Assembly: GCA_027031765.1 (NCBI GenBank)
Contig: JALVPN010000194.1
Span: 1 to 6,446 of the forward strand
Length of the DNA: 6,446 nt
Origin: Promethearchaeota archaeon
Lineage (GTDB): Archaea > Asgardarchaeota > Thorarchaeia > Thorarchaeales > Thorarchaeaceae
Direction of reading: 5' to 3'
This document shows positions 1 to 6,446 of the stretch, piece by piece. Positions within the stretch are counted from its first letter, which is position 1; every line of letters begins with the position of its first letter. Both the position numbers and the translations under genes were made by a program. The notes under the pieces are model-generated. The model searched no databases, had not been told where the DNA came from, and saw nothing but the letters and a program-made list of their open reading frames with translations.

Positions 1-563
1 TCTAAGACTCTCCAGGGCTCATCGGATTGACGCACGGCGTCGAGCACGGCCCCAAGCATGTCTCTTGAACCACGCACCTCTGGCCAGCCGCTCACCACCC
101 ACAGCACCCTCCATGGCCCGTCACACTCTCGGATGGCACAGGCAACTGCACCGAGTACTTCTCTTGAGCCACGCACCTCTGACCAGCCGCTCACTGCCAA
201 CAGCACTCTCCAGGGCTCGTCAGACCCACGGACTGCCTGTGCTAACCGTGGTGCGGCCGCCTCCACCGCGAGGAGCACATCCTGAGAGTCATGTGCCTCA
301 GGCCAGCCCCTCACCGCCCACAGGACTCTCCAAGGTCGGCCATCTGTACGGACTGCGCCGGCAACAGCAGCCAGGACTTGCGGTGAGCGGCGCACCTCGT
401 GCCAGCGACCCACTGCCTCCAGCACTCTCCACGGCTCGTCGGACTCGCTGACGGCAGCCGCCACCCTCGACACGCTATCAGCTACGGCGTGCTGCACGTC
501 CTCAGACTCTGCGAGAGGCCCACAGCGTGAGACTGTCCCGAGCAGCCGCCACACATCCGGGTC
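1..563 (-). repeat. Coding tandem repeat array (33- or 40-aa helical units) of the STAND protein
   Basis: Units: 563-444 DPDVWRLLGTVSRCGPLAESEDVQHAVADSVSRVAAAVSE (40); 443-345 SDEPWRVLEAVGRWHEVRRSPQVLAAVAGAVRT (33); 344-225 DGRPWRVLWAVRGWPEAHDSQDVLLAVEAAAPRLAQAVRG (40); 224-126 SDEPWRVLLAVSGWSEVRGSREVLGAVACAIRE (33); 125-27 CDGPWRVLWVVSGWPEVRGSRDMLGAVLDAVRQ (33); 26-1 SDEPWRVL (partial). At DNA level, 61-113 matches 160-212 at 47/53 bases with a 99-bp offset. Confidence 0.95.
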
Positions 564-2561
564 GTGTCTTGTCGACCAGCGGATTAGCCGGGCTGCGAAG
601 TGTACGACCACCTCTGACAGGCCCGGCCCAGAGGTGGCCTGCTGGGACTGTACCTTCAGGGCATGTCCACACCGGGACAGTTCGCGGGCAAGGGTCACGT
701 GTGGTAACTTCACCCTCCTCATGTCCCCGCGTCCATCATCGACCAGTTCGCCCCACTGTATGAGGTGGGTGCAGGCATTGTACACAGCCCGTTTCAACTC
801 GCGCTCCCCGAACTCGTCCGGGTCTGTGAACACATGTCCTCGCTCCTCTGCGCAGAGCTGGGCCACGAACCGGACAGGCACCCAGATATCAGCAGTACCC
901 AGTGCAGCGATGCTCTCCAAGACTAGTTGCAGCAACATTCTCTTCTCGCCGTCTTCGGCTCCCACGAGGCCGGAGAACGAGTCCTGTTCCGCCAGACTGG
1001 AGAGCCGTGCGAGTACCGATTGCTGGTCGAGTCCGTGCTCATCACGCTCACCGTAGTAGTACCTCCGGATCTCCGAACATATGTCGATGTCCTCGGTCCT
1101 GGTCTCCCGCTCCAGTCCGCGGAGCGCGAACGACAGCAGCCACAGGCTGTGCCTGCACTTCTCCGCCAGTACCCTCTCCATCTGTTGCAGGTGTGCCCTG
1201 TCCGTCTTCTCTCCGAAGGCCGCGACGATACCAGAGACCGCCTCACTGAACTCCTCCTCTTCCAGCCGAATGACGTGGAGCAGTGGACGGCCGCTCTCCG
1301 CACCTGCAATGCCTTCAACCACTCTACTGACAGCACCGTCTGGGTCGTCAGTCGTCATCCTTACAAGGAACAGGAAGTCCGGCCTCGCCACACCGGTCAG
1401 CCCCGGGTACTCAGTCTGTGAGTCCCAGGCACGCGACTGTCTGAGGTTCATGTACACCTCTCTCAGCTTGTCCGGTGCCACATGTACATTGTCGAGGATG
1501 AAGAGGGCACGGGCATTCTCATCGTTCTCGTTGTTGCGCAGGTACCGCACAAGATCCACCAGGTCATCTGCTATGTGTGAGGGGTCATGTCCCATGAAGT
1601 CAACGTAGTACACGGGCGCACCCCGCTCCAAGACTCTCCTGAAGCCGAGGATGAGGGCGAGGGTGGTCTTGCCTGCACCAGCCTTTGCAACAATGAGCTG
1701 CATGTTTGACCTGGTACGGAACCCCTCCTCAACCGCTTTGAGCAGACGTTCCCGTGGGTAGTAGTAGTCATTGAGGAGGTCGACCCACATCGGGTGTGGA
1801 CGCCTGAAGAACGTCGGTGTGACAACACGCCTCCTGTCCAGTGGGAGACTGTCGAACGATTCGATACCCTCATTGACTGCCCCTGCCAGCACATGGAGGT
1901 AGTTGTCGAGGTTGAGGACACGTGGTAGTAGTGAGAACGTGCGTGGGGTCTCTGCGGCCACGGCAGAGGGCCTGAACAGGACTTCTCTGATGTACTCGAA
2001 CATCCCACGTAGTCCACGGATCTGCCCTTGGGTGGCGAGTACGGCCTGGTATATGTCGGCAGTGGATGCCCTGACAGCCACAGTCCTGGCCAGCCTCGCC
2101 TCCAGCTCCTGGGCCACCCGCTCCGCGAGGACACGGTCGTCGAAGCCTGCGCTGACCAGCAGCCCGACCACAGTGTCTGCGAAAGGCTTCTGACCAGAGA
2201 GGTCCATGCGGACTTGTTTGGCGGACTGACGTATCTGCCGGGGCAGACCCTCAAGGACTCTCCACTGTTCGGGGTCAAGACCGAGCTGCTGTGCGACATC
2301 AGCTGCAAGGGCCTTCGTTGCCTGCATGGCCTGCCGTTCATCCCAGTGGCCCCGTATGTGATGGGCAACTCTCGACAGGATGTCTGGCACCCCGGCGGGC
2401 GCAGCACCGGGTAGAAAGGCCCCAGCTGTACGCACGAGCATGGAAACAGTGCCCTTGAGTGCGTCAAGGGTTTCAGCGGATGTGGCCGCAAGCCACAGCT
2501 TAGAGAAGAGGGCGCGGAATGCTCCTAGAGGGCCCTGGCCAAATGGTTGTACTACACCCAT
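1..2561 (-). CDS. NLR-like STAND-class P-loop NTPase (helical N-terminal domain + NTPase/helical/winged-helix module + C-terminal helical repeats); 3'-truncated by the window edge
   Basis: Hand translation from ATG 2561 (in-frame TAG just upstream at 2576-2574; alternative ATG 2441) is open to base 3: MGVVQPFGQGPLGAFRALFSKLWLAA... Motifs: FFRRPHPMWVDLLNDYYYPR (1811-1752); Walker A LIVAKAGAGKTT (AKAGAGKTT 1688-1662, fits [AG]x4GK[ST]); Walker B ALFILDNVH (1508-1482); sensor-1-like FLFLVR (1376-1359); helical-domain KCRHSLWLL (1160-1134); winged-helix-end KLPHVTLAREL (710-678). Repeats follow from 563. Not in the ORF track because no stop lies inside the window. Confidence 0.9.
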   Translation of the reverse strand, partial: MGVVQPFGQGPLGAFRALFSKLWLAATSAETLDALKGTVSMLVRTAGAFLPGAAPAGVPDILSRVAHHIRGHWDERQAMQATKALAADVAQQLGLDPEQWRVLEGLPRQIRQSAKQVRMDLSGQKPFADTVVGLLVSAGFDDRVLAERVAQELEARLARTVAVRASTADIYQAVLATQGQIRGLRGMFEYIREVLFRPSAVAAETPRTFSLLPRVLNLDNYLHVLAGAVNEGIESFDSLPLDRRRVVTPTFFRRPHPMWVDLLNDYYYPRERLLKAVEEGFRTRSNMQLIVAKAGAGKTTLALILGFRRVLERGAPVYYVDFMGHDPSHIADDLVDLVRYLRNNENDENARALFILDNVHVAPDKLREVYMNLRQSRAWDSQTEYPGLTGVARPDFLFLVRMTTDDPDGAVSRVVEGIAGAESGRPLLHVIRLEEEEFSEAVSGIVAAFGEKTDRAHLQQMERVLAEKCRHSLWLLSFALRGLERETRTEDIDICSEIRRYYYGERDEHGLDQQSVLARLSSLAEQDSFSGLVGAEDGEKRMLLQLVLESIAALGTADIWVPVRFVAQLCAEERGHVFTDPDEFGERELKRAVYNACTHLIQWGELVDDGRGDMRRVKLPHVTLARELSRCGHALKVQSQQATSGPGLSEVVVHFAARLIRWSTRHDPDVWRLLGTVSRCGPLAESEDVQHAVADSVSRVAAAVSESDEPWRVLEAVGRWHEVRRSPQVLAAVAGAVRTDGRPWRVLWAVRGWPEAHDSQDVLLAVEAAAPRLAQAVRGSDEPWRVLLAVSGWSEVRGSREVLGAVACAIRECDGPWRVLWVVSGWPEVRGSRDMLGAVLDAVRQSDEPWRVL
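678..1811 (-). other. STAND NTPase module (nucleotide-binding domain, helical domain, winged helix)
   Basis: Order and spacing of Walker A (K298), Walker B (D357-N358), sensor-1 Arg (R401), helical segment and terminal His (H621, position analogous to the NB-ARC MHD / NACHT winged-helix His) match STAND architecture. Residue numbers are counted from ATG 2561. Subfamily not determined. Confidence 0.75.
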
Positions 2562-3007
2562 GCCTGTCCAACACTACCAGTCAACATGTATCAGACCGCT
2601 GACCGATAGTCATCAGATATGTGTTCCGGCTGCCCATGGTCAGGACGGGGCGCCCCGGCGTCCAGATAGGCGGTGCTCCTCTCGGTCCTCACGGCAATGT
2701 ATCAGCAACACCAGCATCTATTGGGAGCGGGAGGAGAGGACCGGGCCGGTACAGGTAGCACGCATGGGTGACCCACACGCATCAACGAGCGCAACGAGCG
2801 CCGGGGAGCCCGGTGGTGGTCGGGAGGGCTGCCTATTGTACTGTGGGACATGCACCTAGCACGGTATGGCGTGGCCCGTCAGGTCAGTCCAGTGCTACGT
2901 CTCTCGTGTCCGGCGGCCACTCGTGCAGGATTTCGTGGACATCGGGACATCACGGGCCGGCAGTCACAAGCCCTACGGTCACTGTCAAAGAGAGGGCATG
3001 GGCCACC

Positions 3008-3050
3008 AAGAATAAGTGTGCCGGGGGACTGGGTACTACACTATTGAGGT
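3008..3050 (+). promoter_or_regulatory. Possible archaeal-type promoter (purine-rich/AT box AAGAATAAG, 3008-3016) and Shine-Dalgarno-like GAGGT (3046-3050)
   Basis: AT-rich box about 35-45 nt upstream of ATG 3052 in otherwise GC-rich DNA. GAGGT lies 1 nt before ATG 3052 and 7 nt before in-frame GTG 3058. The match to a TATA consensus is weak. Confidence 0.3.
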
Positions 3051-3051
3051 A

Positions 3052-5118
3052 ATGACTGTGGACACGATACGTCGCGTCACAGCCCTGTTCACAGTGTGCA
3101 TCTTTGTCGTCAGTGCATGCCCACTCGTTGTTACGGGTGCTGTGACTGTTGTCAGGAATGACATGGACCTTGAAGACACGGGCATATCGCTGGTGGAGCT
3201 GGTGCCCGACGCCAACCTCACCCTCGAGCAGGGGACAGCTGTCAGGAGTGGCTCGGGCGAGTTCTCTGCGGTATGGGGGACGGCGGACGGAGACCACTAT
3301 GTGGACCTCACGTTCACGCACGAGGCCGGCACAGAGCTCGACTTCAACGAGTCCACCGGGACGTACCAGGACATGGTGTACGTATACGAACAGTGCGAGT
3401 GGACAAGGGAGGAGTTGCCGGACCGTGTCAAGTTGGAGCTGGACTTTGGGGTGGCATTCTCGGACGACTTCGTGACGGGCTGGGACAACCCCGGCTGGAG
3501 TTCCGTGTATCCGCTCTCAGTGTCCGTGTCAGCATGGTGTGTCGACGCCTCGGGGAACTGGAACGAGTTGTTTCATTCGGGGCCGCCCTATTACCAGTCG
3601 GACTCGGGAGAGCCCATTGTGACGACCAGGAAGACAGGACTGACATACTCACAGGTCGTTGACTGTTTTGGTGGGATGGTCGAGGACGACGCGGGCCACC
3701 AAGAGGATGCCAACGACACGTTCACTGTCGTAGTCGGCCTGACACTGACACACTACTTCTACAGGCTGCCAGTGGGCGGCGACGAACCATGGCGCCATGT
3801 CAACGGTTCTGTCACCGTAAGGCTATCGAGGGTGTCCTTCGAGGCATTCACAATAGACCCTGACGCGGCCCCTGCACGGCTGGACCCGACACTAGTAGTG
3901 ACAGCACCCTCGGACGGCTCCCGGTTCTATCCGAGCATCGCAGTTGACAGTGGGCACTCGTTCTATGCAGCGTCATATTCCACATCCACTGACCCTGCAT
4001 CGCCACGACTTGTGAAGTGGTCAGCCAATGGAGACGTGGAGTGGCAACGCCCCATATGTCAGCAGTCCTATGATTTCGTGCGTGTGCTGTCCGTTGGCAA
4101 CAGGATATGTACTGTCGGCGGGATCCGCCACCACGGTGAGGACAACGCCCACATCGTGCTCCTGACGGTCTGGGACACTGAGGGTACGATGACCGCCAAC
4201 ACTACGGTCGAGCTGGAGGGTTCACCACTGGCCTTCCTCGACGCCGCTGCGGACGCTGCAGGACATCTGTGGGTGCTGGCGGCCGAGACCTCAGGTCAGA
4301 CACTCACCCCGCTGATACTCGGGGTCGACATGTCCGGTCAGGTGGTGCATACTGGACAACTGGACGACTTCCCCGTCCAGCTTGCGGTCTCTGCGGATGG
4401 GACACTCGTCCTCCTCATGCCAGACAGGGTCGATGCCTACAACTCTGAGCTCCAGCACCTGTGGTCTGCAGACACACACGGCATGGTCGCATCTGCTTCT
4501 GTCGACCCATCTGGCAACGTGTATGCAATAGGACGGCCGTATGAGGACGATGTGCCACTGCTCCCAGACAGGGGGTTCTCACTGCTCCGACTGGTCTCTG
4601 AGGGGCAGGCGGACTGGCTCTCTGTGACACGGCAGACCATCGGGGACAGACATGGTGACACTGCCACCAGTGACCTGTCATGGGCTGTTGGCAGGCCGGT
4701 GCATGCCGCATTTGCAGCCCCCGCAGTGGGTACCTGCATGGCCCTTGTCATCGGGGAATACCTAGAGTACTCCGCGCTTGTCAAGTTCAACGCGAGCGGG
4801 CGGCTCGTGCAGTCGTACTCCCTCGGCCACATATCCGACATGCTCAGCGAGTACAGCCCAGGTACTCCTGTCGGGCTCGCTGTTGCGCCTGACGGACTCG
4901 TGTACTTGGCCTGGCCGACGCAGGTCATCGCCCTCGACATCGGACTGACGGGAGGCGGTACTGGGACGACCGGGACACTCCTCGTGGTCGCGGTGTCGGC
5001 GGTGGGCGTTGCAGCAGTTGCCGGGGCGGCGGTGCTCTATGTACGTCGGAAGCGCAGCACAGTGCCGGCCATCCATGGCCCTGCTGCCACACCGGGTGCC
5101 GGCGCAGGCCCCCAGTGA
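3052..5118 (+). CDS. Secreted, C-terminally membrane-anchored cell-surface protein (about 688 aa): signal peptide, uncharacterised beta-rich domain, beta-propeller, TM helix, short cytoplasmic tail
   Basis: N-terminus MTVDTIRR-VTALFTVCIFVVSACPLVVTGA is basic then hydrophobic. Propeller-blade motifs lie in about 3900-4950 (SIAVDSGHSFYAA, LVKWSANGDVEWQ, DAAADAAGHLWVL, QLAVSADGTLVLL, SASVDPSGNVYAIG, LVKFNASGRLVQS, GLAVAPDGLVYLA). A G/T linker precedes the TM helix LLVVAVSAVGVAAVAGAAVLYV (4978-5043) and RRKR (5044-5055). Start at 3052 or 3058 is preferred to GTG 3016. Confidence 0.9.
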   Translation: MTVDTIRRVTALFTVCIFVVSACPLVVTGAVTVVRNDMDLEDTGISLVELVPDANLTLEQGTAVRSGSGEFSAVWGTADGDHYVDLTFTHEAGTELDFNESTGTYQDMVYVYEQCEWTREELPDRVKLELDFGVAFSDDFVTGWDNPGWSSVYPLSVSVSAWCVDASGNWNELFHSGPPYYQSDSGEPIVTTRKTGLTYSQVVDCFGGMVEDDAGHQEDANDTFTVVVGLTLTHYFYRLPVGGDEPWRHVNGSVTVRLSRVSFEAFTIDPDAAPARLDPTLVVTAPSDGSRFYPSIAVDSGHSFYAASYSTSTDPASPRLVKWSANGDVEWQRPICQQSYDFVRVLSVGNRICTVGGIRHHGEDNAHIVLLTVWDTEGTMTANTTVELEGSPLAFLDAAADAAGHLWVLAAETSGQTLTPLILGVDMSGQVVHTGQLDDFPVQLAVSADGTLVLLMPDRVDAYNSELQHLWSADTHGMVASASVDPSGNVYAIGRPYEDDVPLLPDRGFSLLRLVSEGQADWLSVTRQTIGDRHGDTATSDLSWAVGRPVHAAFAAPAVGTCMALVIGEYLEYSALVKFNASGRLVQSYSLGHISDMLSEYSPGTPVGLAVAPDGLVYLAWPTQVIALDIGLTGGGTGTTGTLLVVAVSAVGVAAVAGAAVLYVRRKRSTVPAIHGPAATPGAGAGPQ

Positions 5119-5165
5119 CGGGGACGGCTGACGGGCTGCACACAGCATAGTACCATGGCACAGGC

Positions 5166-5205
5166 GAGCAGAGCAGGTCAGAGCAGAGTAGAGTGGAGTG
5201 GAGTG
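5166..5205. repeat. Degenerate pentanucleotide microsatellite, 8 units
   Basis: GAGCA GAGCA GGTCA GAGCA GAGTA GAGTG GAGTG GAGTG in the 104-bp gap between two convergent stop codons. Confidence 0.85.
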
Positions 5206-5222
5206 TAACGGGGCAGCGCGGG

Positions 5223-6446
5223 TCACAGGCCGCGTGCCCTCATTGCTGCCTGGACTGCAGGGTGACGGAGGACTTCGGGCCAGCCGACCAGACTGTCCAC
5301 GATATGGTCGGGTCTGAGGGCCTTCCTTATGGCAGAGGATATGCGCTGCACAGCACGCCAAGCAGCAGCCACCACGTCCTCAGACTGTTCCAGCTCGGGC
5401 CACCCGGAAACGGCACCGAGGACCTCCCACGGCCGGGGTGACCACTCAATAGCGAGGGCTACCCGTGGCGCACACTCGAGCACTGCACTACGTATTGCCA
5501 CTGAGTCCCGAGTCCCGGGCCAGTCCTTCAGCAGGGCGAGCACATGCCATGGCCTGTCTGACTGTCGCAGCACCTCGGCGACTGCAAGGAGGATGTCCTC
5601 TGACCCGCATAGTTCCGGCCAGTTGGAAACGGTCGCGACCACCTCCGACGGCCTGTCCGACCCCCGGATGGCCTCTGCCAGCTCTGGCGCTCTGCTGGCC
5701 ACAGCACGGGACACCGTTTCAGACTCCCGGATGACAGGCCACTCCAGGAGTGTCCGCAGCAGCCGGTACGGGTCGTCAGACTGGCGTATCGACTCTGCAA
5801 CCCGGGACAGGCTGTCGGTGACCGCGTTGCACACCATTTCGGAGTGCTGTACACCAGGCCACTTTGACACGGCCTCGAGCACGCCACACGGGTCATCAGA
5901 GATACGGACAACATCCGCCAGTGCACTGAGCACCTCTGTTGACCAGCAGACCCATGAGTACCCGGACATCACGGAGAGGGCCTCGTAGGGGGGCTCTGCA
6001 ATGCGGACGGAGTCTGCCAGCGCACAGAGCACCTCGGACGACCTCTGCGCCTCGGGCCAGTCCTGCAGCACTTCGAGTATGTCACCGATGTCCGGAGACC
6101 GACGGATGAGGGCGGCCAGCGAACTGAGCACTTCATCAGACCCGCGGAGCTCAGGCCACCTGGAGAGGGCCCTCAGTATCTCCACTGGTCTGTCAGACAC
6201 CACGACTGCACGGGCCACCTGTGGAGCAGCCCCGGTCACGGCCCTACGGAATGCACCCGAGTCGGACAGGCCGGGCCACCCGGACAGGACGCGCAGCACC
6301 TCCCACGGTCTGGCTGAGTGGCGCACTGCACTGGCCACTGCAGACCTTATCTCCTCAGAACTCAGCAGCGACGGCCACTTGGCCACAGCGGACAGCACAC
6401 CTTCCAGCTCGTTGTCGGCACTACGTATTGATTCTGCTATCCGGGG
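5223..6446 (-). CDS. C-terminal part (407 aa visible) of a helical-repeat protein sharing the STAND protein's repeat; 5'-truncated by the window edge
   Basis: The frame of the supplied 5223..6398 ORF stays open to 6446 (PRIAESIRSADNELEG precedes VLSAVAKW), so GTG 6398 is not the start. Stop TGA at 5225-5223. The whole visible sequence is the SD.PW.VL..(V/L)S.WP....S..V..AVA..(I/V)R repeat. Confidence 0.9.
   Translation of the reverse strand, partial: PRIAESIRSADNELEGVLSAVAKWPSLLSSEEIRSAVASAVRHSARPWEVLRVLSGWPGLSDSGAFRRAVTGAAPQVARAVVVSDRPVEILRALSRWPELRGSDEVLSSLAALIRRSPDIGDILEVLQDWPEAQRSSEVLCALADSVRIAEPPYEALSVMSGYSWVCWSTEVLSALADVVRISDDPCGVLEAVSKWPGVQHSEMVCNAVTDSLSRVAESIRQSDDPYRLLRTLLEWPVIRESETVSRAVASRAPELAEAIRGSDRPSEVVATVSNWPELCGSEDILLAVAEVLRQSDRPWHVLALLKDWPGTRDSVAIRSAVLECAPRVALAIEWSPRPWEVLGAVSGWPELEQSEDVVAAAWRAVQRISSAIRKALRPDHIVDSLVGWPEVLRHPAVQAAMRARGL
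5226..6446 (-). repeat. Coding tandem repeat array, 11 units plus a partial unit
   Basis: Unit starts (lengths in aa): 6422 (35), 6317 (40), 6197 (33), 6098 (33), 5999 (33), 5900 (40), 5780 (40), 5660 (33), 5561 (40), 5441 (40), 5321 (32, terminal). With 8 leading residues these sum to 407 aa. Confidence 0.95.

Follow-up and report, generated by a model that had tools for sequence, protein, structure and literature searches.

In debates over the origin of eukaryotic innate immunity, NLR-like STAND receptors hold a central place. The described members, among them Apaf-1 and CED-4, the plant NB-ARC NLRs, the animal NACHT NLRs, the Avs and bNACHT proteins, MalT, and the TPR-sensor STAND protein 6mfv, share one order of parts, in which an N-terminal domain is followed by a P-loop NTPase with helical and winged-helix domains and then by a C-terminal sensor. 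Fungal NLRs of the HET-E/D/R type carry WD40, ANK, or TPR arrays made of highly conserved repeats with hypervariable sites. NLR-type systems have also been reported in Asgard archaea by a published survey (PMC11291487), so the kind as such is already known there. Here we describe a stretch of 6,446 nucleotides (the window) from a Promethearchaeota archaeon, which comprises the first 6446 bases of scaffold C194 (9411 bases) in a metagenome-assembled genome of 2.95 Mb and 229 contigs. Its leftmost gene (gene A) encodes a STAND NTPase with a repeat sensor, and the rightmost gene (gene B), on the same strand, encodes the same type of repeat. Taken as a whole, the data make it probable that gene A belongs to an Asgard STAND family with a SKWP-type solenoid sensor and an NLR-like mechanism, and that gene B is a repeat-only protein.

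The closest described relatives of the sensor are the SKWP repeats of XopAD (Xanthomonas and Pseudomonas), RipS1-8 (Ralstonia), and Mlr6331/Mlr6361 (Mesorhizobium). SKWP arrays have been described as alpha-solenoids without known function and likened to OPR/PPR proteins, with RNA binding as a speculation (PMC7729196, PMC13667924). Those of rhizobial and pathogen effectors are predicted to be PPR-like, again with speculation on RNA binding (PMC13667924), and the PRK09169 model has been used to mark octotricopeptide (OPR) tracts, with SKWP drawn beside OPR motifs (PMC7729196).

Gene A lies on the minus strand at positions 3..2561 and encodes 853 amino acids (aa) within the window, its C terminus falling off the left end of the contig; the assignment is based on the open reading frame (ORF), the architecture of homologs, and fold matches. 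The first-pass annotation, made from the sequence alone, had read this gene as a helical N-domain, a STAND NTPase, and repeats in that order, a reading now upheld by the ORF, invariant motifs, and matches to STAND folds. The N-terminal domain (aa 1-240; 1842..2561, minus strand) is all-helical in the structural model at low per-residue confidence (pLDDT) and is a candidate effector or adaptor domain. It is followed by the nucleotide-binding domain (NBD), helical domain, winged helix, and arm (aa 241-660; 582..1841, minus strand), which were recognized from structural alignments, Foldseek matches, and invariant residues. The repeat sensor (3..581, minus strand) begins at about aa 665 and comprises at least five to six units of 33 or 40 aa with the consensus SDEPWrVLxAVsgWPEVRxSxEVLaAVaxAvRe, identified by unit hidden Markov model (HMM) matches and periods of 32 to 42 aa, and it ends at the contig edge.

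Conservation was assessed over seven sequences, namely gene A, two paralogs, and four homologs from related genomes. The homologs from the relatives (1010 to 1231 aa, among them complete proteins of 1070 aa in G011 and 1063 aa in G004) keep the order of parts found in gene A. All seven share the pattern PxxFRxPHxxWxD ahead of the P-loop, which in gene A is PTFFRRPHPMWVD (aa 249-261; 1779..1817, minus strand) with P249, F252, R253, P255, H256, W259, and D261 invariant. Walker A (AKAGAGKTT, aa 292-300; 1662..1688, minus strand) is invariant from G295 to T300, and this GAGKTT stretch at aa 295-300 confirms K298 as the Walker A lysine, as previously annotated. Walker B (ALFILDNVH, aa 352-360; 1482..1508, minus strand) follows the shared pattern hhhhDNxH with D357, N358, and H360 invariant, and its residues 353-357 form a beta strand in the model. 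Further invariant elements are R401 and, within the NBD-to-arm region, the patterns SLWLxSF (SLWLLSF in gene A; 1128..1148, minus strand) and LPHxTLA (LPHVTLA; 687..707, minus strand), the latter in the predicted winged helix. The invariant histidine of LPH is a possible counterpart of the MHD histidine of NB-ARC proteins.

An AlphaFold2 (AF2) model of gene A residues 1-690 has a mean pLDDT of 62, with the NTPase part mostly at 70 to 90, and the strand-helix pattern of a P-loop core is visible in it. In Foldseek, the leading matches are Apaf-1, CED-4, and the resistosomes of NRC4, Sr35, and ZAR1 (E values of 4e-7 to 6e-5), and ORC/Cdc6 comes shortly after them. In VIA-align, the highest Z scores go to 6mfv (13.3), the NRC1 NB-ARC (12.7), Apaf-1, MalT, and SAMD9 (12.6 each), and NLRC4 (11.6). 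The alignments of these STAND proteins cover 285 to 330 residues between model residues 205 and 690 (mostly from about 250), while clamp loaders align over about 200 residues only. EfAvs5 is also among the fold matches (Z score of 10.5). Gene A thus combines Walker A and Walker B in an AAA+-like core, an NBD followed by helical and winged-helix domains (at moderate model confidence), a solenoid array after the arm, and a helical N-domain in front. Judged by its model and motifs, it is a genuine tripartite STAND protein, with an N-domain, an NBD/helical/winged-helix/arm module, and repeats with a conserved C-terminal cap.

In searches with sequence profiles, no Pfam or PADLOC threshold is reached by gene A. 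The Pfam family nSTAND5 (PF25199) matches gene A at 22.4 bits (E value of 1.2e-4) against a gathering cut-off of 34, and the relatives score between 17 and 31 bits; only the distant member P0019 passes, at 35.0 bits. Subthreshold matches to nSTAND5 and nSTAND3 (PF20720) recur across the family, and these are the sole Pfam families repeatedly matched by the NTPase region. Since gene A stays below the cut-off and P0019 alone exceeds it, the sequences place the gene A family as a divergent neighbor of nSTAND5/nSTAND3 and not as a demonstrated member. No match to NACHT (PF05729) or NB-ARC (PF00931) was found for gene A at E values up to 1, and NACHT appears in one distant relative only (E value of 1.2e-3, below the cut-off). 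PADLOC searches with seven members returned no Avs or NLR model and only mad8, in five of the seven (1.8e-4 to 1.1e-6). NCBIfam gave nothing useful for gene A, a profile of the STAND module searched against the Protein Data Bank (PDB) had a designed P-loop protein as its sole match, and a word-index homolog search with residues 1-660 returned no match, so that an exhaustive profile search was needed. The comparison with Avs, NACHT, NB-ARC, and nSTAND profiles that the first-pass annotation had proposed therefore has a divided outcome: the STAND fold is found by structure, and the Avs, NACHT, and NB-ARC profiles do not match. Asgard defence surveys rely on existing profiles (PMC11291487); PADLOC and Pfam miss the gene A family.

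In summary of this comparison, gene A resembles known repeat-sensor STAND proteins in its order of parts, in lineage-specific paralog expansions, and in a modular sensor, which is a WD40 propeller in one relative. It differs from them in its sequence, which none of the profiles for NACHT, NB-ARC, Avs, and MalT matches, in a Walker B of the form hhhhDN with one acidic residue, in the conserved FFRRPHxxWxD before the P-loop, in an N-domain without known family, and in a sensor that is a SKWP-type, ARM-like solenoid and not an LRR, TPR, WD40, or ankyrin array.

The repeat is best seen in gene B, whose C-terminal 407 aa (5223..6446, minus strand) form a stand-alone SKWP-type solenoid of about 11 units plus a C-terminal cap ending in HPAVQAAMRARGL, as judged from the translation, an AF2 model, NCBIfam, and tblastn. 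Units are 33 or 40 aa long, often in alternation, and the length of about 42 aa expected of SKWP units was not found. Across 46 units of the source genome, S1, P4, W5, V7, L8, V11, W14, P15, S20, A26, and V27 are conserved and positions 6, 9, 12, 13, 19, 21, and 29 vary most; W14 is present in 42 of the 44 archaeal units scored and P15 in 33. The AF2 model of the 407 residues (pLDDT of 92.6, pTM of 0.80) is an all-helical solenoid with three helices per unit. Its best Foldseek matches in the PDB are importin-alpha and beta-catenin, at an E value of 2e-5 with a template modeling (TM) score of just 0.2 to 0.42, and the Atlas comparison with ARM/HEAT clusters gives TM scores of 0.5 to 0.6; Pfam Arm (PF00514) has no match in gene B. 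The models thus suggest that the archaeal SKWP-type repeats form an armadillo-like alpha-solenoid.

Four separate tests agree on the identity of the repeat as the known SKWP type. The NCBIfam XopAD/skwp model (NF041399) matches gene B at an E value of 3.8e-14 and 51 bits, below its whole-protein cut-off of 2000 bits and only across profile positions 461-814 of 2133, where its repeats lie, and PRK09169 matches at 4.2e-8. A tblastn search matches genes annotated as xopAD on 16 plasmids of Pseudomonas (best E value of 2e-7, about 95% of the query covered). XopAD is the first row of the Atlas shape search with the repeat model. Finally, a unit HMM built from archaeal units only finds 17 units at exact 42-aa spacing in a Pseudomonas XopAD (E value of 4e-12); its score is 32 bits, and none of 200 shuffles exceeds 5.5 bits. 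At the core common to both repeats is the ...aLSxWP(D/E)... turn, with literal AKWP and SKWP in gene B, and the archaeal units show the tandem helical units with an S-K/x-W-P turn that mark the SKWP class. We conclude from these comparisons that the archaeal repeat is a shortened version of the SKWP repeat found in XopAD/RipS effectors. The earlier view of an unfamiliar repeat that is not a TPR, WD40, LRR, or ankyrin holds in its second part; the repeat itself has a known type.

Like the Xanthomonas, Pseudomonas, Ralstonia, and Mesorhizobium effectors, the archaeal repeat has the conserved turn and an A-rich last helix, and both are alpha-solenoids, as seen in the gene B model and as described for the effectors (PMC13667924). 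The archaeal unit, at 33 or 40 aa, is shorter than the 42 aa of the effectors because its first helix is three residues shorter. Unlike the effectors, the archaeal proteins have no type III secretion context, RdRP-like module, or RelA/SpoT-like module, and their host is an archaeon. The XopAD array on a Pseudomonas amygdali plasmid (L027 1913-9307) is extremely regular, with near-identical 42-aa units; the units of the archaeal stand-alone solenoids are far more diverged than these. Weak repeat matches (E values of 3.5e-5 and 2.2e-4) also occur in other ORFs of 632 to 697 aa in the source genome, e.g., G000:C50:12397-13620.

Within the window, gene B consists wholly of the repeat type of gene A, which bears out the earlier observation that the right gene ends, on the minus strand, in the repeat of the left gene, over all of its 407 aa. 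The window stops directly at a 10-N scaffold gap (C194 6447-6456), beyond which the contig continues to 9411. Past the gap, the gene B frame holds about 190 aa more of repeats and starts with an ATG at contig position 7120, just about 27 aa ahead of the first recognizable unit; the next 140 bp upstream are noncoding and are followed by the stop codon of a third gene (gene C). Because the frame starts so close to the first repeat, gene B has no room for an NTPase module, and from its sequence it is a repeat-only solenoid protein and not a second receptor. The proposal that the right gene is a second STAND receptor accordingly fails, and the search for Walker A and B in its flanking sequence, put forward in the same annotation, finds no NTPase, an outcome that had been named as one half of what would refute the proposed cluster.

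Gene C (7291..9411 of C194, minus strand, outside the window) shows nothing but repeats in the 707 aa present on the contig, with its N terminus off the contig, and the part seen suggests that it is not a receptor of gene A's kind. It ends in the cap HPAVRDALRARGL, which is common to gene B and the STAND-type genes, and its portion at the contig end aligns with the N-terminal region of gene B. The units of genes B and C are 35 to 40% identical to those of gene A, against 52 to 64% for the repeats of the STAND paralogs. The idea that genes B and C donate repeat cassettes to the receptors finds no support, the units being only 35 to 40% identical to those of gene A.

Similar repeat-only ORFs (739 to 781 aa) without a detectable NTPase are present in the relatives G008, G009, G015, and G023. 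In the relative G012 and in a Thorarchaeota database protein, an Arf-family GTPase domain (37.6 and 40.8 bits, above the Pfam cut-off of 22.3) is followed by about eight SKWP-type units. Such Arf-GTPase fusions are about 740 aa long (L017 277-2505, on G012:C17; P0160 and P0161), and one is annotated as "ADP-ribosylation factor-like protein." On sequence grounds, the SKWP-type repeat is a lineage-wide module found in at least three architectures.

The source genome carries four STAND paralogs with 60 to 71% identity (on C194, C156, C134, and C74), each broken off within its repeats by the end of its contig. None of the four contigs connects to another through an exact overlap of ends; when the final gene A unit is compared with the first one on C156, about 60 bases are nearly identical, after which the two sequences diverge. 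On C156 (L013), the end of a STAND-type repeat gene (2-1141) is followed after 370 bp by the start of the next STAND gene (1512-3803) on the same strand, and because of this spacing, tandem STAND-STAND pairs probably exist in the source genome. The relative G004 has two complete STAND-solenoid genes in tandem (L009 9221-15977, on G004:C6), which are 66% identical and differ by whole-unit indels. In the relative G006, a homolog of 1424 aa (L011 443-4717, on G006:C41) has the same N-domain and NTPase module, and a WD40 propeller replaces the solenoid. Of 41 related genomes, 7 contain the STAND module and 12 the repeat, all within one family. A profile search against 1.84 billion cluster representatives returned 261 proteins at an E value of 1e-3 or less and only 13 at 1e-30 or less; the unit HMM finds the repeat in 6 of the best 148 of these 261, and the closest named members looked up are all labeled hypothetical. 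The family is thus, by these searches, small, multicopy, rapidly duplicating, patchy, and sensor-modular, with its STAND NTPases seen so far only in Asgard archaea.

Among six neighboring units on C156, pairwise differences at positions 6, 9, 12, 13, 17-19, and 21 comprise 99 replacements and 13 silent changes, and those at the remaining 25 positions comprise 95 and 83; as the positions were chosen after seeing the data, the contrast is descriptive and not a test. With that reading, replacements between units cluster at fixed positions, in agreement with the diversifying repeats that the first-pass annotation had cited for eukaryotic NLRs. Very similar units with few differing positions, a varying number of units, and clustered paralogs are also features of fungal NLRs; the gene A family differs from them in repeat fold, NTPase clade, and domain of life. 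The first-pass annotation had described the locus as a paralogous sensor array, and this holds for the family through the four paralogs, the tandem pair in G004, and the arrangement on C156. It does not hold for the window itself, where the right gene is not a STAND gene and an unrelated gene on the opposite strand lies in between. The count of paralogs that it had called for gives four STAND copies in the source genome and a patchy distribution in the relatives.

The N-domain was examined in an alignment of 12 members, which gave no significant Pfam or PDB sequence match. Individual Pfam matches are subthreshold and inconsistent (LTXXQ in three members, CARD in one at 3.6e-3, DarT in one), and the Atlas search offers a weak lead only, the NACHT N-terminal helical domain NNH2 (score of 0.86). 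A Gly/Ala-rich hydrophobic stretch near aa 35-55 is transmembrane (TM)-like by hydropathy in some members only. A death-fold or pore-forming N-domain is not supported, given the inconsistent Pfam matches, the lack of a PDB match, and hydropathy that is TM-like in only part of the members. From its position, we infer that the N-domain is the output domain.

Architecture, fold, and evolutionary behavior make it very likely that gene A is a ligand-gated STAND switch with a solenoid sensor. A mechanism can be drawn by analogy with Apaf-1, the plant and animal NLRs, Avs, and MalT, and an NLR-like sensor role is plausible on the same basis. The solenoid would keep the NTPase closed and ADP bound. 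A ligand, most likely a protein, would bind the variable face of the solenoid (unit positions 6, 9, 12, 13, and 17-21) and free the closed state, and nucleotide exchange would then drive oligomerization, which would gather the N-terminal helical domains as the output. As for the biological role, the sensing of viral ligands or other conflicts, i.e., immunity, is the most likely single one, although we hold it as possible and not yet as probable. A more far-reaching version, in which this is an Asgard-specific family of innate-immune-type receptors whose SKWP-type armadillo solenoid with a hypervariable face replaces LRR, WD40, TPR, or ankyrin arrays and which diversifies by unit turnover and tandem duplication in the manner of eukaryotic and fungal NLRs, is offered as a tentative suggestion.

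The genomic surroundings were compared in four contexts, and no partner gene is conserved across them. The G004 tandem pair has genes for peptide-binding proteins nearby and NurA-like and HerA-like genes about 4 to 8 kb upstream; MetRS, HMG-CoA synthase, and thiolase genes accompany the G011 homolog; arginase, MFS, and redox genes are found on the P0013 contig; and C134 has two proteins without a Pfam match. As no partner is conserved, the STAND gene appears to behave as an autonomous unit inserted at different places, which fits single-gene NLR-like systems. No defence island was found among the four contexts when this proposed check was carried out, and for that reason an antiviral role remains something that we infer.

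Several observations weigh against a receptor family with an immune role. Conserved defence genes are absent from the four contexts, with NurA/HerA in G004 only and housekeeping or metabolic neighbors in G011 and P0013; PADLOC yields only the weak mad8 match and no Avs or NLR model; and the N-domain, over its 12 members, matches no known effector in Pfam or the PDB. The gene A model has a mean pLDDT of only 62, and a single data set served both to pick the variable positions and to count the replacement excess. Moreover, the repeat also occurs in this lineage on its own and in fusions with Arf-like GTPases, so that it serves interactions in general and does not mark immunity. The main rival builds on such points: gene A would be a non-immune STAND switch or scaffold, and the solenoid, the Arf fusions, and the stand-alone proteins would serve endogenous signaling or the regulation of membranes or the cytoskeleton. 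The union of the repeat with an Arf-family GTPase domain in Thorarchaeota proteins and its stand-alone occurrence in four relatives, where the ORFs are about 740 aa long, favor this explanation, as do the lack of a defence-island context in the four surroundings, the lack of a recognizable toxic effector domain in the Pfam and PDB searches of the N-domain, and the reported general expansion of alpha-solenoids in Asgard proteomes (bioRxiv 10.64898/2026.10.28.762692). However, the STAND module has a patchy distribution, also inside a single family (7 of 41 genomes), its paralogs expand in a lineage-specific manner, replacements concentrate at few unit positions, and the sensor has been exchanged for WD40 in G006. 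Together, such features resemble conflict genes more than core machinery. We regard the non-immune switch as doubtful.

Two further explanations appear improbable. The solenoid could recognize RNA modularly, as OPR, PPR, or PUF proteins do, through a small number of positions per unit that set its specificity, making the STAND protein an RNA-triggered switch, in line with the match of gene B to PRK09169, the model used for OPR tracts (PMC7729196), with the PPR-like prediction and speculated RNA binding of SKWP effector arrays (PMC13667924), and with unit variation at positions 6, 9, 12, and 13 on one helix face. That RNA binding of SKWP is itself speculation in the literature; moreover, the solenoids are net acidic (D+E versus K+R of 13.8% versus 10.8% in gene B and 15.4% versus 8.2% in gene C), unlike typical RNA-binding repeat proteins, and their best PDB fold matches are peptide-binding ARM proteins and not PPR or PUF. 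RNA sensing is disfavored by this acidity and the ARM-like fold. Still less likely is that the right gene is a full STAND paralog after all, with an NTPase that the scaffold gap, or the wrong joining of repeat-rich contigs, conceals. The true length of the 10-N gap may differ from 10 bases, no public contig bridges it, and the assembly is unreliable here, as all STAND paralogs of the genome break in repeats. Against this, the frame runs through repeats before as well as after the gap, and the sequences flanking it combine into a single unit of 40 aa (...AVSSAI / PRIAESIR...); upstream of the gap come the roughly 190 aa of further repeats, the ATG about 27 aa before the first unit, the 140 noncoding bp, and the gene C stop; and a misjoin would need the NTPase inside the repeats, whereas every homolog has it N-terminal to them and never inside. 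Repeat-only ORFs also occur in relatives with better assemblies, and the units of genes B and C are 35 to 40% identical to those of gene A compared with 52 to 64% among STAND paralogs.

Three long ORFs occupy the 6446 bases of the window, the GC content of which is about 57 to 66% throughout. The middle one, on the plus strand (3052..5118; ORF 3016..5118, with the likely ATG at 3052 behind GAGGT), encodes an unrelated protein of 688 aa and is convergent with gene B and divergent from gene A. The distance of 2.7 kb previously noted between the two minus-strand genes is accurate (2662 bp from the gene B stop to the gene A start); it is not intergenic, being filled by this gene. The protein is acidic and has a hydrophobic N-terminal signal or TM segment and, at the C terminus, a TM anchor with RRKR behind it, with Kyte-Doolittle maxima of 2.5 at both ends, and is probably a surface protein. 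No Pfam, PADLOC, or NCBIfam family was found for it, and its Atlas score of 0.78 is uninformative. Paralogs with 28 to 34% identity in the N-terminal half are located on C211 (two) and C13, away from STAND or repeat genes. By eye, the C-terminal half resembles beta-propeller blades.

The archaeal origin that the first-pass annotation had considered probable is confirmed by two proteins encoded in the source genome, an actin of eukaryote type (445 bits) and an EAP30/ESCRT-II protein that exceeds its cut-off, and by named homologs labeled Candidatus Thorarchaeota or Promethearchaeota; these markers place the host among the Asgard archaea, in the neighborhood of Thorarchaeota. The single public sequencing run containing the window DNA is a hydrothermal-vent metagenome, and its contigs bridge neither the 6447-6456 gap nor the 7122-7161 stretch. 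The public sequencing-run search listed no RNA runs containing the stretch, and Rfam gave no match on the whole of contig C194. No tandem repeat array was found at the DNA level, the units being too diverged there.

What is new here is an NTPase clade outside current profiles, a SKWP-type sensor, and a link between an effector repeat and an archaeal receptor. The locus also shows that a repeat-only neighbor can pass for a second receptor where a window stops at a scaffold gap. The gene A family is rare, with 13 representatives at an E value of 1e-30 or less among 1.84 billion proteins, and it joins a STAND core to a repeat class previously known only from type III effectors of plant-associated bacteria. 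This combination therefore offers another, independent setting in which the ligands of SKWP repeats can be sought. The Arf-like GTPase fusions in Thorarchaeota suggest that the repeat may be a general recognition module of Asgard cells. If the receptor-family reading is true, the SKWP repeats of type III effectors from plant pathogens would belong to a much older prokaryotic module for ligand recognition, one that in the nearest kin of eukaryotes has also been wired to Arf-like GTPases.

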